From a virus (Duplodnaviria; Heunggongvirae; Uroviricota; Caudoviricetes), in IMG/VR virus record IMGVR_UViG_2531839662_000041, positions 1 through 10,722 of that record: DNA of 10,722 bases; one strand, 5' to 3'. The notes under the pieces are model-generated. The model did not search any database and was not told where the DNA came from. It was given only the letters and a program-made list of their open reading frames with translations. How positions within the stretch are numbered: the stretch's first letter is position 1; every line of letters starts with the position of its first letter. Below are positions 7,075 through 10,722 of this stretch, piece after piece. A program made the position numbers and the translations under genes.

Positions 7075-7363
7075 ATGATACCCCCTCGTAAAAGATGGTC
7101 ACGTGAAGACCGGGAATTTATCGAAGCCAGTGTCGGGAAAATGACTGTTGAAGAAATGGCGAAAAAAACTGAACGTTGCCCCAACCGCCCTACAGGCACA
7201 TGCCAGAAGACACGGAATATCGTTGTGTGCATACCGGGTCAGTGAGCACGACAAATATTTGTGTCGTGAACTTTATAAAGAAGGGCTGGATATTCATGTC
7301 ATTACCCAAAAGATGGAATTAAGCAATCGTGCTGTATCCAGCATTGTATACAGCGAATATTAA
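7075..7363 (+). pseudogene. Frameshifted (or slippage-dependent) helix-turn-helix early gene: frame 1 (7075-7248) and frame 2 (to 7363) join at an A7 tract (7162-7168)
   Basis: A strong AGGAGG Shine-Dalgarno 8 nt upstream of the ATG at 7075 opens a reading frame giving MIPPRKRWSREDREFIEASVGKMTVEEMAKK, after which the translation becomes unprotein-like (TERCPNRPTGTCQKTRNIVVCIPGQ) and stops at 7248. The +1 frame from the A7 run gives LNVAPTALQAHARRHGISLCAYRVSEHDKYLCRELYKEGLDIHVITQKMELSNRAVSSIVYSEY. Joined, ...TVEEMAKKLNVAPTALQAHARRHGISL forms a textbook helix-turn-helix. Removing one A from the A7 run restores a single ~95-aa ORF. Confidence 0.6.
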
Positions 7364-7950: not shown

Positions 7951-7980
7951 GGCGCGATGCGTCAGGGGATTGCTCGCGCC
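7951..7980. repeat. Inverted repeat GGCGCGA ... TCGCGCC (7-bp arms, 16-nt spacer) in the gam-downstream intergenic region
   Basis: Read directly from the sequence. No T-tract follows, so it is not a canonical intrinsic terminator. It could be an RNA stem-loop or a protein-binding site. Confidence 0.5.
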
Positions 7981-8006
7981 TGAAACAGATTACTGAGGAA
8001 TAAAAA

Positions 8007-8546
8007 ATGGTTGATGCAAAAGTTCTGAACGGTGTCAGTACATTATTACGGGCTTACGGACGTCTGACCTGTGGCGTTCTGGCGGAAAAAATGAATATGC
8101 CACCTTCTTCAATGGTGTATTTCCTGCGTGATGCGGTTGATGCCGGAGTTCTCACTGAATGCAACGGATTTTATGACGTTCCGCGCCCTCGTCCGACGCC
8201 GCCAGTAAGACGAAACGCAACGGAGCACCCCGCTGTTGATGATGCTCAATGGTGCGCTTTCCGCCGCTCTTTGCCCTGGCTGGAAGGCAATGCCATTCCG
8301 GCACTGGCAAAAGAATTTGCGACAGGCGTACTGACCTGCGAGTCGGTTTACATCGTTGCTGAAGTGGATGACGAGATGTGCAAACAGGGGATGCCCCGTT
8401 TTGTGATGGCGTATATCGATATCCGACTGGGACGTTTTATTTGTGGCTCCAGTGGCTGGAATATCACCGACCACGTCCTGCGCTATCTCATTCTTGATTA
8501 TTCACCGGTTCCGGCGGCAACACAGGATGTCAGCGAGCATGGTTAA
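8007..8546 (+). CDS. Hypothetical early-region protein (179 aa) with an N-terminal winged-helix-like segment and a Pro/Arg-rich linker
   Basis: ATG with GAGGAA Shine-Dalgarno 6 nt upstream. The N-terminal LRAYGRLTCGVLAEKMNMPPSSMVYFLRDAVDAGVLTE resembles a MarR/Lrp-type winged helix, followed by a PRPRPTPPVRR linker. Function unknown. Confidence 0.6.
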   Translation: MVDAKVLNGVSTLLRAYGRLTCGVLAEKMNMPPSSMVYFLRDAVDAGVLTECNGFYDVPRPRPTPPVRRNATEHPAVDDAQWCAFRRSLPWLEGNAIPALAKEFATGVLTCESVYIVAEVDDEMCKQGMPRFVMAYIDIRLGRFICGSSGWNITDHVLRYLILDYSPVPAATQDVSEHG

Positions 8547-9103: not shown

Positions 9104-9632
9104 ATTAATTCATGTCGCCCGTCGGGAATTGCAACTTGACGATGACACTTACCGCGCCTTTCTGGTGCAGTGCACGGGCAAAACCAGTTGCCGCGAGCTG
9201 TCCGTTGCACAACTGGAACGGGTGCTCGATGCCATGAAAGAGCGCGGTTTTAAGAAGCAGAAAAAACATCCCCGCCGTCGCTTTAAGGGGCATGTCACAC
9301 CACGCGAGAAGATTTACAAAATCTGGCAGCAGATGTTTCTTGATGGTTTCGTCTCCGATATCAGCGACGCCGCGCTGGACAAATACGTTGAACGCCTGAC
9401 GGCCAGACGTAATGGCGGTCAGGGTGTTTCCACGCTGGCCTGGTGTCACGGGGAATCGTTGCAGGTTGTGCTCGAAACGCTCAAACAGTGGCACATGCGC
9501 TGCATCCGTGAAGCCTTTGCCCGACATGGTGTGCCTTTACCTGTAAGCCCATCCGGGCGGGAACTGCGCGGCTATGATGCACTGACCAGTGCATATGCCC
9601 GCGCACGAAACAGCGGGAGAATTGCTGTATGA
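9081..9632 (+). CDS. gemA: GemA-like protein (Mu gp16 family, DUF1018), 183 aa
   Basis: The ORF-track entry begins at a GTG (9036). The likely start is the ATG at 9081 (MSRTSLIKLIHVARRELQLDDDTYRAFL...), with AGGAG 10 nt upstream. Position immediately upstream of mor, with an ATGA stop/start overlap into mor, matches Mu gemA-mor. Sequence identity is recalled with moderate certainty only. Confidence 0.7.
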   Translation: MSRTSLIKLIHVARRELQLDDDTYRAFLVQCTGKTSCRELSVAQLERVLDAMKERGFKKQKKHPRRRFKGHVTPREKIYKIWQQMFLDGFVSDISDAALDKYVERLTARRNGGQGVSTLAWCHGESLQVVLETLKQWHMRCIREAFARHGVPLPVSPSGRELRGYDALTSAYARARNSGRIAV

Positions 9633-10078
9633 AACAGATGAAAGAGCAGGATTTGTTCGAAGACCTTCGGGACGACAGCGTTCTGGAATATCTTCATGAT
9701 TACCAGGAAAACACCGCTTATCCGGCGTTACTTTCTGAACTGAACGCACTGCTGCGTAAAGAGCTGGCCCGGATTGGCGCAGACCCTGCCCATTCCCTTG
9801 AGCTGGTTGTGGCGATTTGTCGCCATATCGGCGGGATGCAGGTTTATGTTCCGAGGGGGAATATTCTGGAGAATCTTGTCCGGGATATGCGTATCTGGCG
9901 TGATTTTAACGGCCATAATATTCCTGAACTGGTTCAGCGTTACGGGGTGACGTATAAAACCGTCTACAAGGCCATCAAACGGATGCGACGTCTGGAGCGC
10001 AATAAATACCAGCCGGATTTGTTTTACCTCTCCCCGAACCTGCCTCACCCCGTTCGTCGTCCGCCACGACGCCCTTAA
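9629..10078 (+). CDS. mor: Mor-family middle-operon transcriptional activator (149 aa)
   Basis: DLFEDLRDDSVLEYL ... PALLSELNALLRKELARIGADPAHSLELVVAICRHIGGMQVYVPRG ... RDFNGHNIPELVQRYGVTYKTVYKAIKRMRRL parallels Mu Mor as I recall it (DLFGDLQDDTILAHL ... PALLAELNDLLRGELSRLGVDPAHSLEIVVAICKHLGGGQVYIPRG ... VYKAIRRMRRL). It has a C-terminal HTH. ATG overlaps the gemA stop. Confidence 0.9.
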   Translation: MKQMKEQDLFEDLRDDSVLEYLHDYQENTAYPALLSELNALLRKELARIGADPAHSLELVVAICRHIGGMQVYVPRGNILENLVRDMRIWRDFNGHNIPELVQRYGVTYKTVYKAIKRMRRLERNKYQPDLFYLSPNLPHPVRRPPRRP

Positions 10079-10084
10079 TCAATG

Positions 10085-10108
10085 AAGCCGGTAAATCCGG
10101 CTTTTTTT
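10085..10108 (+). terminator. Putative rho-independent terminator downstream of mor
   Basis: Stem AAGCCGG (10085-10091) pairs with CCGGCTT (10097-10103) around a TAAAT loop, followed by a 7-T run (10102-10108), 7 bp after the mor stop codon. In Mu the early transcript terminates after mor. Confidence 0.7.
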
Positions 10109-10164
10109 ATGCCTCCGGCACCATGAAGCAGACCACGTTTAACTCTGCTTCACAGGTGCTTTTT

Positions 10165-10722
10165 ATGGAAAATCTAAAATTATATCTGGCCTTTGAGCGT
10201 GCGCTGAATTTTATTCTGCGTCCTGATATCGAAGGCGTCTATGTCAATGACCCCACTGACCGTGGCGGAGAAACCAGGTACGGCATCTCTGACCGCCGCG
10301 ACGGTGTGATTGACGGCAAAACTGACGTCAACGGTGATGGTAAACCCGACACCCGCATTAAGGATTTTACCCGCGAACAGGTTGCGCAGATTTACTGGCG
10401 CGATTACTGGCTGCCTGCCGGGTGTGACCAGTGGCCTGACAGAGTGGCGCTTTTTGTGTTCGATGCGGCGGTTCAGCATGGTGTTAAAAAAGCCATCAAA
10501 CTTTTGCAGGAAGCCACTGATATCAATGCCGATGGCATCATCGGCCCGCGCACCCGCAGGGCCGTGAACCTGGCTGACCAGAACTGGTTGCTGACCCGCT
10601 GTATTGTCCGTCGTTCCCGCTTTTATGCCGAAATCATCAAATCAAAACCCGCCCAGGGCAAATACCTGAACGGCTGGTTTAACCGCATGGAAAAACTGAC
10701 CGACGCCTGTCTGGAAATCATC
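10165..10722 (+). CDS. GH108-family lysozyme-like protein with peptidoglycan-binding domain (5' partial; 186 codons, runs off the window)
   Basis: Not in the supplied ORF track because no stop codon occurs before the window end. The ATG at 10165 has AGGTG upstream. The translation MENLKLYLAFERALNFILRPDIEGVYVNDPTDRGGETRYGIS ... DFTREQVAQIYWRDYWLPAGCDQWPDRVALFVFDAAVQHGVKKAIKLLQEATDINADGIIGPRTRRAV carries the GH108 signature (EGGY-like VNDP-DRGG-T-YGI, FD-AVN-G) and the PG_binding_3 motif (DGIIGP-T). I translated all 186 codons by hand and found no stop. Confidence 0.8.
   Translation, partial: MENLKLYLAFERALNFILRPDIEGVYVNDPTDRGGETRYGISDRRDGVIDGKTDVNGDGKPDTRIKDFTREQVAQIYWRDYWLPAGCDQWPDRVALFVFDAAVQHGVKKAIKLLQEATDINADGIIGPRTRRAVNLADQNWLLTRCIVRRSRFYAEIIKSKPAQGKYLNGWFNRMEKLTDACLEII

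Follow-up and report, generated by a model that had tools for sequence, protein, structure and literature searches.

A GH108 muramidase gene directly behind mor in a Mu-like prophage of Escherichia coli: a probable endolysin with a hairpin-forming leader

The window analysed here, i.e. the whole stretch of 10,722 nucleotides, is 100% identical to a region of E. coli UMNF18 (NZ_AGTD01000001.1), where the prophage is located between treA and dhaM. The end of the window holds the activator gene mor, a short spacer and most of a gene for a glycoside hydrolase of family 108 (GH108). The features discussed below are the following.

9629 to 10078, plus strand: mor (Pfam Mor PF08765, E=3.6e-30), the only gene for a Mor/C-family activator in the prophage.
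10081 to 10096, no strand assigned: 16-bp element AATGAAGCCGGTAAAT, at the position of the Mu Mor-binding dyad (-51 to -36 of Pm).
10084 to 10108, plus strand: intrinsic-terminator-like hairpin GAAGCCGG/CCGGCTT with a T7 run (terminator scan, RNA fold).
10117 to 10160, plus strand: leader hairpin in the MFE fold, with outer stem GGCACC/GGTGCT, inner stem TGAAGCAGA/TCTGCTTCA and an 11-nt loop, followed by a T5 run.
10119 to 10124, plus strand: predicted -10 hexamer CACCAT, at positions 11-16 after the T run and at the Mu Pm distance from the dyad.
10154 to 10158, plus strand: Shine-Dalgarno sequence AGGTG, seen by inspection and separated from the ATG by 6 nt.
10165 to 10722, plus strand: GH108 muramidase gene, the first 186 of its 195 codons lying in the window (RefSeq WP_000429310.1).
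10228 to 10482, plus strand: GH108 catalytic domain, aa 22-106 (Pfam PF05838), with Glu23 of E-G-(G/V)-Y and the motif DxxGGxTxxGI.
10291 to 10350, plus strand: lineage-specific acidic loop, aa 43-62, DRRDGVIDGKTDVNGDGKPD, with the DxDxDG-type motif D54-V-N-G-D-G-K-P-D62.
10492 to 10689, plus strand: PG_binding_3 domain, aa 110-175 (Pfam PF09374, E=2e-17).

The frame that starts with the ATG at 10165 runs through 186 codons to the window end without a stop, as the initial annotation had noticed, and it is missing from the ORF list because ORFs running off the window were not listed. Extension of the sequence in NZ_AGTD01000001.1 places the stop 30 nt beyond the window; the result is an intact gene of 195 codons, with neither an early stop nor a frameshift, and the length of the protein is within the range that is usual for the family (193-198 aa). 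RefSeq already lists the product as a 'glycoside hydrolase family 108 protein'. An alternative in-frame ATG at 10123 would add 14 amino acids; however, in the STEC1575 copy, which is 95% identical, a 1-nt deletion puts this ATG out of frame, and 10165 is therefore the likely start.

All three peptides quoted in the initial annotation are found in the translation (VNDPTDRGGETRYGIS at aa 27-42, DRRDGVIDGKTDVNGDGKPDTRIKD at aa 43-67 and DGIIGPRTRRAV at aa 123-134), and the profile searches it had proposed agree with the two domains that it read from them. The catalytic domain matches Glyco_hydro_108 (PF05838) with E=5.6e-23 and 81.7 bits against a cut-off of 21.2, covering profile positions 7-85 out of 85, while the PG_binding_3 domain, which is C-terminal to it, reaches 63.6 bits against a cut-off of 24.6. 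The protein also matches PHROG 315, 'endolysin' (E=2.7e-53). Nine residues (E23, Y26, D29, D32, G34, G35, E36, T37 and G40) are invariant in alignments of 14 and of 19 homologues; of these, we take Glu23 to be the catalytic residue of GH108. The motif around it reads EGVY and not EGGY, i.e. the second glycine is replaced by valine, and the same is true for the nearest E. coli homologue, P0001. An AlphaFold2 model was calculated from a 19-sequence alignment (mean pLDDT 75), and its top 14 Foldseek matches are all of the GH108 type (2IS5/2IKB, 7DNP, 2NR7, 6V3Z and 6V40; probability 1.0, TM 0.5-0.7), the model being unreliable, with pLDDT below 50, at residues 24-53, i.e. in the catalytic loop region. 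Characterised GH108 proteins share the motif, the fold and the PG_binding_3 domain at 24-35% identity; these are ElyA1 and ElyA2 (Acinetobacter phage), NMB1012 (2IKB), Brucella SagA (7DNP) and Salmonella TtsA (6V40). Coliphage N4 gp61 is another characterised member of the family. Proteins that combine the two domains are experimentally muralytic endolysins (PMC7188820, PMC12661215), and we regard the product as an N-acetylmuramidase of family GH108 that carries PG_binding_3 at its C-terminus; its muramidase activity is predicted from the sequence.

An apparent insertion within the catalytic domain had also been pointed out, and it is real. Fourteen residues have no counterpart in the Vibrio and Shewanella orthologues, and NMB1012, a homologue with a solved structure, has about 10-12 residues fewer in this stretch. 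The loop is kept in all aligned enterobacterial homologues (19 out of 19), in which D43, R45, D46, G47, D50, G51, D54, G57, D58, P61 and D62 are invariant, whereas none of the solved GH108 structures has a DxDxDG-type loop according to the alignments. The motif suggests that the loop may bind calcium. In the AlphaFold model the pLDDT of the loop region is below 50, and its position with respect to the active site is beyond the reliable part of the model.

In the UMNF18 genome the GH108 gene is followed by genes for a gp18-like protein, a gp19-like membrane protein with at least three transmembrane segments, a 202-aa membrane protein, a TraR/DksA zinc-finger protein, a DUF2730 protein (the family of Mu gp25 'releasin'; E=1e-30) with an N-terminal transmembrane segment, gp26-like and gp27-like proteins, terminase, portal and F. 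A single nucleotide separates the stop codon of GH108 from the start codon that follows it (TGAtATG). When a hydrophobic or charge-free segment was sought at the N-terminus of the GH108 protein, neither a signal nor a SAR segment was seen, the longest charge-free stretch being 6 residues as compared to 17 in Mu gp22; a protein of this kind would thus require a holin. The search for lysis partners, as suggested by the initial annotation, recognised no holin and no spanin, and there was no lipobox ORF for an outer-membrane spanin among the listed ORFs. PF11351, 'GTA_holin_3TM', gave sub-threshold matches to the 202-aa protein and its Shewanella homologue (20.2 and 18.4 bits vs. 24.8), and the homologues of the 202-aa protein are only 'hypothetical' or unnamed proteins without Pfam domains. 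Tblastn searches with Mu-type lysins as the only queries found no Mu Lys or Rz homologue in either the UMNF18 prophage or Kp4866-3, and the annotation of the UMNF18 prophage contains no other lysozyme.

The prophage itself carries several lesions: the sheath gene lacks its N-terminus, frameshifts affect three baseplate/tail genes and one early gene, and the gp18 and gp19 genes are fused. With a truncated sheath and these frameshifts the UMNF18 prophage may not complete a lytic cycle, and one could regard its GH108 gene as an inert relic of a decaying prophage. We find this unlikely, since the GH108 ORF, promoter module and leader show no damage and agree with those of functional-looking relatives. 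Moreover, UMNF18 is an older whole-genome shotgun assembly, in which some of the frameshifts may be sequencing errors. We note that decay would bear on the activity in one strain, and not on the identity of the gene.

The mor product is 63% identical to Mu Mor and 32% identical to Mu C, and its recognition-helix region reads TVYKAIKRMRRL as compared to TVYKAIRRMRRL in Mu Mor. The initial annotation saw no gene for the late activator C between mor and the hydrolase gene, and in fact there is none there or elsewhere in the 31-kb prophage: a tblastn search of 42 kb detected no second Mor/C-family gene, at a sensitivity where the Mu Mor query recovers Mu C at E=7e-20. A single Mor/C locus is also present in Kp4866-3 and in 13 other loci. 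In other words, a Mu-type three-tier cascade (Mor, C, late genes) requires a second paralogue, C, that this prophage does not contain.

The spacer between mor and the GH108 gene had been described as a terminator and about 55 bp, which is accurate; the terminator ends at 10108 and 56 nt follow before the ATG. The terminator element closes the early operon, overlaps the dyad and does not vary between Mu, vB_YpM_5 and the E. coli relatives. The 16-bp element of UMNF18 aligns with AGTAAAGCCGGTTAAT of Mu, the AGCCGG spacer being identical, and the core AAGCCGGT(A/T)AATCCGGCTTTTTTTA is invariant between the UMNF18 spacer and Mu Pm. The Mu counterpart of this sequence is a mapped Mor site and promoter, with the Mor-binding dyad at -51 to -36 of Pm (PMC4287176, PMC4390567). 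Our promoter numbering reproduces -57G and -54A of these studies, and the -10 of Mu Pm (TATCCT) is our own assignment from the published numbering. A promoter of the Mu Pm type would be expected to have a 16-bp dyad in which 5-bp inverted repeats flank a GC-rich spacer of 6 bp, and whose centre is 43.5 bp before the start. In UMNF18 the AGCCGG spacer is at the Mu position relative to the terminator and the hexamer, and by analogy to Mu Pm transcription is predicted to start at about 10132. The half-sites are AATGA/TAAAT in UMNF18 as opposed to AGTAA/TTAAT in Mu, with an internal dyad symmetry of 3/5, and since they are unlike those of Mu, recognition by the UMNF18 Mor is an assumption. Two positions of the hexamer, A2 and T6, are present in approximately 45 out of 50 distinct leaders. 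No sigma-70 -35/-10 pair was found in the region 9900-10400 and the hexamer is not preceded by TGn; the lack of such a pair nearby fits activator dependence.

A second copy of the module (49 nt, 86% identity, with one mismatch in its 16-bp element) is found upstream of the head protease gene. The likeness between the two copies, and also between lineages, runs 12-16 nt past the T run. Where an extra gene intervenes between mor and GH108, as in L007 and Kp4866-3, the module adjoins GH108 and not mor. Among 124 module copies in viral contigs, about 87 (86-87) are located before GH108, 21 before the head protease gene and 13-14 before Mu gp18. Rfam gave nothing above threshold in the spacer, the sroD family reaching 25 bits vs. 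50 and covering the terminator hairpin only. A leader peptide starting from the conserved ATG in the hexamer region was considered and ruled out, as frames and stops are inconsistent among lineages and there is no Shine-Dalgarno sequence before this ATG.

The leader of the GH108 gene folds into a second hairpin, the 5' arm of which overlaps the predicted -10 and +1 and the 3' arm of which covers the Shine-Dalgarno sequence. Its MFE is -22.5 kcal/mol (z=-4.33), and none of 200 shuffled sequences folds as well, while an RNA begun at 10132 folds to only -3.3 kcal/mol. In the fold of the read-through RNA, four out of five Shine-Dalgarno nucleotides are paired with bases upstream of the predicted +1. 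Equivalent hairpins with differing stem sequences are found in 50 distinct GH108 leaders (median z=-3.67; z<-2 in 44 out of 50), whereas Mu gp18 leaders behind the same module, which served as the control (n=4), have z values near 0. In the vB_YpM_5-type leader the 5' arm GCCCTC, at positions 3-8 after the T run, pairs with the Shine-Dalgarno sequence GAGGGC (z=-4.47). Here Mor and Pm are nearly identical to those of Mu, for which the start is mapped, and the 5' arm corresponds to untranscribed promoter spacer.

The support for the hairpin consists of z-scores of individual sequences against the Mu gp18 leaders. RNAalifold found no consensus structure in MAFFT alignments of 10 and of 12 diverse leaders; such alignments fail because the stems lie in different registers. 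The GH108 leaders and the Mu gp18 control could not be told apart by the opening energy of the ribosome-binding site, and this measure is not counted as support. The antisense strand folds as stably as the sense strand (median difference -0.2 kcal/mol, Wilcoxon p=0.26), i.e. this comparison does not distinguish a role at the RNA level from one at the DNA level. In front of the protease gene, the leader hairpin is not significant in UMNF18 (z=-0.94), and the median over nine distinct protease leaders is z -1.8. The conserved hairpin before GH108 may be a new feature, and we infer that it blocks expression from read-through transcripts.

These data bear on the question whether the module drives the GH108 gene at all. 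It could be nothing but the terminator of the preceding operon, with GH108 being expressed by early read-through or from an unrecognised promoter, and not through Mor. Indeed, the element is predicted as a canonical intrinsic terminator, the prophage has both copies at operon ends (after mor and after F), and the half-sites differ from the Mu Mor site; termination could alone explain part of the module's conservation. However, the similarity that continues past the T run takes in a hexamer, spaced exactly as in Mu Pm, whose A2 and T6 hardly vary, and the same sequence in Mu is both a Mor site and a promoter. Early read-through is a poor source of the enzyme if the leader hairpin silences read-through RNA, and no sigma-70-type promoter was found nearby. 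We consider it quite improbable that the module acts as a terminator only.

The arrangement GemA-Mor-GH108-gp18-like, followed by membrane proteins, TraR, DUF2730 and terminase, does not reflect a local rearrangement: it was found in 13 enterobacterial loci and in Mu-like phages from the genera Vibrio, Shewanella and Klebsiella. STEC1575 and STEC346 share this order with Shewanella MuM16-2, Vibrio 1.136.O and Klebsiella Kp4866-3. In the Vibrio and Shewanella phages (1.136.O, NVP1136O_20; vB_SspM_MuM16-2, p20) the two-domain protein is 41-44% identical to that of UMNF18, and the order is gp16/GemA, Mor, GH108, gp18-like, a membrane protein of about 200 aa, TraR/DksA, DUF2730 and small terminase, with a single Mor/C gene in the regions examined, as in UMNF18. 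They differ in having an extra 150-aa ORF between mor and GH108, in lacking the 14-residue acidic loop, and in carrying a hairpin AAAAGCACAATC...GGTTGTGCTTTT that abuts the ATG in place of the Mu-type Pm core. For Vibrio Mu-like phages this layout is already published, GH108 being listed there as the endolysin and paired with DUF2730 (Chamblee et al. 2022, Table S1).

Mu itself shares with UMNF18 not only Mor and the Pm core with its identical spacer and terminator, but also gp18 (69% identical), a gp19-like multi-pass membrane protein and homologues of DUF2730/gp25 and gp27, in conserved order. The middle operon of Mu is Pm-gp18-gp19-gp20-C and its lysis cassette consists of the gp22 SAR endolysin, the gp23/23.1 spanins and the gp25 releasin. 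On the other hand, Mu has no GH108 and the leader of its gp18 has no hairpin (z about 0), while C, a gp22-type lysozyme and an Rz-like spanin are all missing from the UMNF18 prophage. The Mu head promoter PI needs C, whereas UMNF18 repeats the Pm-like module before the protease gene. The possibility that Mu gp18 and gp19 (72 and 120 aa) are a frameshifted GH108 gene was ruled out, since there is no GH108 tblastn match in Mu below E=0.1 and gp18 is the homologue of the gene after GH108. The initial annotation had interpreted the gene order as a rearranged middle/late region. This is correct relative to Mu, but among the carriers of the module GH108 behind the module is the majority (about 87 out of 124) and the passage from mor to gp18 is found in 13. 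Its other suggestion, a Mor-controlled lysis gene, is favoured by the Pm core with the spacing of the -10-like hexamer and by the downstream membrane proteins, DUF2730 and terminase.

A different arrangement is found in the Yersinia phages vB_YpM_5 and vB_YpM_6 (genus Muvirus). Their GH108 protein, which shares 71% identity and also the acidic loop with that of UMNF18, is encoded directly behind Pm and before gp18, and the leader hairpin pairs promoter spacer with the Shine-Dalgarno sequence. Nevertheless, these phages keep the C of Mu (99% identical) as well as a gp22-type endolysin, and GH108 is an extra gene of the middle operon. The coexistence with a Mu-type SAR endolysin means that in some phages GH108 may be neither the only lysin nor an essential one. 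It also raises the alternative that GH108 is an accessory muramidase, i.e. either a middle-operon 'moron' whose remodelling of peptidoglycan has a purpose other than lysis or a second lysin that is redundant, and 12 viral contigs that combine a Mu-type Mor with GH108 can be cited in its favour. For the UMNF18 lineage this has only an outside chance: no other muramidase was found there when Mu-type lysins were searched for, GH108 heads a cluster of membrane-protein and DUF2730 genes as in the Vibrio phages where it is taken as the endolysin, and PHROG 315 is an endolysin family. Finally, that GH108 should be a host-domesticated, secretion-associated muramidase like TtsA (typhoid toxin export) or SagA (Brucella type IV secretion), which unlike phage endolysins act in secretion, is hardly credible: the fold and both domains are common to these proteins (PDB 7DNP, SagA, TM 0.72; 6V40, TtsA) and some database names read 'secretion activator protein', but in every locus examined GH108 belongs to a Mu-like phage genome, with mor on one side and the terminase genes on the other, there are no neighbouring genes for toxins or secretion, and the similarity to the TtsA type is weak (E=1e-5 to 9e-7) as compared to the prophage protein NMB1012 (5e-20).

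We think it probable that the GH108 protein is the soluble endolysin of a Mu-like transposable prophage, made from a Mor-dependent start in a two-tier cascade and gated by the leader hairpin. GH108 would open the transcription unit behind the early operon, a unit that appears to merge the 'middle' and 'lys' operons of Mu. Mor would bind the Pm-like dyad overlapping the early terminator and start transcription near 10132. As there is a single Mor-type activator and no C, and as the module is repeated before the protease gene, the cascade would have two tiers (early; Mor and the rest) and not the three of Mu. Only RNA that enters from the early operon should be able to form the full hairpin, which would silence these read-through transcripts and, in UMNF18, may also terminate them. 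Synthesis of the endolysin, and of the products of the closely packed genes behind it, would in this case be confined to RNA that Mor has initiated, and the enzyme would reach the wall through a membrane lesion caused by a downstream membrane protein in the putative role of a holin.

The proposed gating resembles the fold-back inhibition of IS10/Tn10 transposase translation, reportedly described by Davis, Simons and Kleckner in 1985. In that system the 5' arm of an inverted repeat is likewise upstream of the element's own start, and only transcripts from outside occlude the ribosome-binding site. The system and the sequence are unrelated, and for GH108 both the start and the effect on translation are predictions.

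A broader reading combines four elements: an undescribed fold-back gate in GH108 leaders, acting as a second terminator in some lineages; a Mor-only, two-tier cascade as the common state among the relatives of Mu; a later insertion as the source of the C/gp22/Rz block of Mu; and Mu gp18-gp20 as leftovers of a GH108-type cassette. Taken jointly, we regard these as a tentative and rather doubtful proposition.

The gene call in itself fills a gap in an ORF list, and both the RefSeq annotation and the GH108/DUF2730 pairing were already on record. What changes is the perspective on Mu: among carriers of the Mu middle-promoter core, the arrangement of mor, gp18-20, C and a SAR endolysin is the exception, and one activator with a cytoplasmic GH108 endolysin is the rule. 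The role of the DUF2730 'releasin' with a non-SAR endolysin was left open by Chamblee et al. 2022, and the present lineage is a natural test set for this question, as it is for the roles of Mu gp18 and gp19. Finally, lysis genes placed right behind the early operon raise the problem of premature lysis, to which the leader hairpin would be a simple and testable answer.

The reading frame that starts at the ATG at 10165, after mor (9629-10078), is open for 186 codons as far as the end of the window. The ORF list omits it solely because it leaves out ORFs cut by the window end. Extension downstream gave a complete product of 195 aa with a stop 30 nt beyond the window, and the E. coli UMNF18 record already labels the gene 'glycoside hydrolase family 108 protein'. 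The initial annotation had proposed a GH108 and peptidoglycan-binding identity, and the profile searches bear this out (Glyco_hydro_108, E=5.6e-23, 81.7 bits vs a cut-off of 21.2; PG_binding_3, E=2e-17; PHROG 315 'endolysin', E=2.7e-53). Homologues from Enterobacterales have 193-198 aa and both domains. The closest solved relatives are NMB1012 of Neisseria meningitidis (2IKB, E=5e-20), Brucella SagA and Salmonella TtsA, and a structure search with the AlphaFold2 model (mean pLDDT 75, residues 24-53 below 50) returned solely GH108-type structures of this kind. The catalytic-motif residues E23, Y26, D29, D32, G34-G35, E36, T37 and G40 are invariant in the aligned homologues. A hydrophobic or SAR-like N-terminus was not found in the protein.

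The features of the region are as follows.

Window 1 to ~1701, minus strand: treA
Window after ~1701: left third of a Mu-like prophage of ~31 kb, between treA and dhaM
10081-10096: local dyad equivalent AATGAAGCCGGTAAAT, by alignment to Mu
10119-10124: predicted -10 hexamer CACCAT
~10132: predicted transcription start
6 nt before ATG 10165: Shine-Dalgarno AGGTG of the likely GH108 start codon
Directly after GH108: gp18 homologue, 69% identical to Mu gp18, its start abutting the GH108 stop (junction TGAtATG)
After gp18-like: gp19-like multi-pass membrane region, fused to the gp18-like ORF in UMNF18
After gp19-like: 202-aa protein that has a coiled coil and, at its C-terminus, membrane segments
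After the 202-aa protein: TraR/DksA zinc-finger protein
After TraR/DksA: DUF2730 protein, of the family of Mu gp25 'releasin'
After DUF2730: gp26-like and gp27-like proteins, then terminase

An in-frame ATG at 10123-10125, inside the predicted -10 region, would add 14 residues; it is not in frame in STEC1575, whose copy is 95% identical, and is probably not used.

The stretch compared (window 9600-10722) is 100% identical to the UMNF18 chromosome (NZ_AGTD01000001.1), and matching DNA is present in 50 of 5,426 complete E. coli genomes. The prophage genes run in the order repressor, ner, transposase A, B, small early genes, gam, gemA (gp16), mor and GH108, with the rest of the prophage, up to com and mom, lying beyond the window. 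In the UMNF18 prophage region (L001) it spans approximately 3388-33747 in the treA-dhaM intergenic region, which is uninterrupted in E. coli K-12. We note that an early gene is frameshifted (window 7075-7363), that the tail sheath gene is without its N-terminus and that three baseplate/tail genes are frameshifted (L001 20995-21648, 25618-26689, 27655-28732, 29305-30192), which reflects either a defective prophage or indel errors of an older shotgun assembly.

The absence of a C gene between mor and GH108, claimed initially, extends to the whole region: tblastn with Mu Mor, Mu C and the local Mor as queries detected one Mor/C-family locus in the 42 kb examined. Its product is 63% identical to Mu Mor and 32% to Mu C. 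The Mu Mor query detects Mu C at E=7e-20, so any paralogue in the prophage would have shown. In UMNF18 the gp18-like and gp19-like parts are joined into one 211-aa ORF (L001 11976-12611), which begins 32 nt beyond the window and whose membrane part is divergent (PHROG 12596); PGAP called its first 73 codons alone, as a pseudogene. STEC1575 and the STEC346 prophage have two separate genes instead, 75 and 136 aa long, which overlap. Neither a Mu-type lysozyme nor Rz was found in the prophage, and no holin or spanin was recognised among its genes. Com and mom are kept although C, which Mu requires as activator at Pmom, is absent. In the region upstream of them (L001 32780-32935) the GATC-site cluster of Mu is conserved, whereas there is no conservation in the part that aligns with the C-binding region of Mu.

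The mor-GH108 spacer resembles the Mor-dependent Mu middle promoter, Pm. The Mor site of Mu is a 16-bp dyad from -51 to -36, with 5-bp repeats flanking a GC-rich hexanucleotide (PMC4287176, PMC4390567). With the Mu sequence numbered as in these papers (-57 is G, -54 is A), the dyad is AGTAAAGCCGGTTAAT and +1 lies 24 nt after the T run. The core AAGCCGGT(A/T)AATCCGGCTTTTTTTA is invariant across the UMNF18 prophage, its relatives, Yersinia phage vB_YpM_5 and Mu. The hexamer position is cAnnAT-like, with A2 and T6 in ~45 of 50 distinct leaders, and no ordinary sigma-70 promoter was found in window 9900-10400. By its sequence, the spacer is thus a putative Pm-type promoter region, whose dependence on Mor we infer.

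A second copy of this promoter/terminator module (L001 19021-19069, 49 nt, 86% identical to window 10072-10120) lies outside the window between minor head gene F and the protease gene, with a CATACT hexamer at equal spacing; at this position Mu has the C-dependent promoter PI instead. The copy is also found in STEC1575 and is degenerate in Klebsiella phage Kp4866-3. At least 124 exact module copies were found in IMG/VR, and among those listed the next gene is GH108 in ~87, the protease in 21 and Mu gp18 in 13.

Mu has no GH108, its order being mor - Pm - gp18 - gp19 - gp20 - C - lys. The UMNF18 order of mor, GH108 and the genes behind them recurs in other E. coli prophages, Shewanella phage MuM16-2, Vibrio phage 1.136.O and Kp4866-3, as well as in 13 loci from Klebsiella, Pluralibacter, Raoultella, Kluyvera, Serratia, Brenneria and Trabulsiella. 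Vibrio GH108 + PG_binding_3 proteins have been listed as endolysins paired with DUF2730, and many DUF2730-bearing Mu-like phages have cytoplasmic endolysins (Chamblee et al. 2022, PMC9239132). An intermediate form is seen in two Yersinia Muviruses, vB_YpM_5 and vB_YpM_6: a 71% identical GH108 + PG_binding_3 gene lies between Pm and gp18 (in vB_YpM_5 at L002 5983-6543, i.e. MT374853.1 14273-14833), while a Mu-type C (99% identical) and a gp22-type SAR endolysin are retained. They therefore encode two muramidases, whereas the table of Chamblee et al. gives the gp22-type endolysin alone (PMC9239132). A Mu-type Mor is combined with GH108 in at least 12 IMG/VR contigs.

In elements with an extra gene behind mor (STEC346, Kp4866-3, most other genera), it is GH108, not mor, that the module adjoins. 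The extra ORF of STEC346 (L007 7437-7934) encodes 165 aa that match nothing in Pfam, that of Kp4866-3 is AT-rich and encodes a small membrane protein (L010, about 7965-8290), and most other genera have 0.45-0.65 kb between mor and the module. These ORFs are unrelated among relatives, and the mor/Pm junction looks like a hotspot of accessory-gene insertion.

The leader between hexamer and start codon is predicted to be strongly structured. UMNF18 RNA 10117-10160 can form a 15-bp interrupted stem followed by U5 (MFE -22.5 kcal/mol, z=-4.33; 0 of 200 shuffles as stable), whereas RNA from the predicted +1 folds to just -3.3 kcal/mol. The same architecture, with differing stem sequences, is seen across 50 distinct leaders of GH108 genes (energies from -15 to -31 kcal/mol; z has a median of -3.67 and is below -2 in 44). 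In most base pairs the 5' partner lies upstream of position 24, and 44 of the 50 leaders have such a partner for 3 or more of the 5 Shine-Dalgarno nucleotides. No such structure is seen in four distinct Mu gp18 leaders that follow this module (z -0.6 to +0.8); the hairpin therefore tracks GH108 rather than the promoter. In vB_YpM_5-type elements, whose Pm and Mor are nearly identical to those of Mu, the 5' arm falls within the promoter spacer and is untranscribed from Pm. From the folding statistics, the gp18 control and this arm position we propose a fold-back of read-through RNA: transcripts from the early operon would be the only ones able to form the hairpin, given the predicted +1, and the hairpin would hide their ribosome site and, in UMNF18, could double as a second terminator. 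Sense and antisense folds are equally stable, an opening-energy measure did not separate GH108 leaders from the gp18 control, and no Rfam family matched the leader. Sequence-based alignments leave the stems out of register and gave no consensus structure with RNAalifold. The Shewanella/Vibrio Mu-like phages (L003 4856-4935, L004 4863-4950) are without a Mu-type Pm core; a possible counterpart of the leader hairpin there is a different inverted repeat, AAAAGCACAATC ... GGTTGTGCTTTT, which ends directly at the GH108 ATG and includes the ribosome-site AGG.

The insertion noticed initially within the GH108 domain is real: the enterobacterial proteins have 14 more residues than those of Vibrio/Shewanella Mu-like phages in the alignment, and ~10-12 more than NMB1012. 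D43, R45, D46, G47, D50, G51, D54, G57, D58, P61 and D62 are invariant in 19 enterobacterial sequences, and D54-V-N-G-D-G-K-P-D62 fits, by motif, a DxDxDG-type calcium-binding loop.

The initial observation holds and its reading was essentially right, but both the gene and its layout are already known and common. Only three elements may be new, each with a role that we infer: the hairpin in the leader, the repeat of the promoter module, and the acidic loop. In the best-supported reading, GH108 serves a one-activator Mu-like phage as its soluble endolysin and is expressed from a Pm-type promoter.
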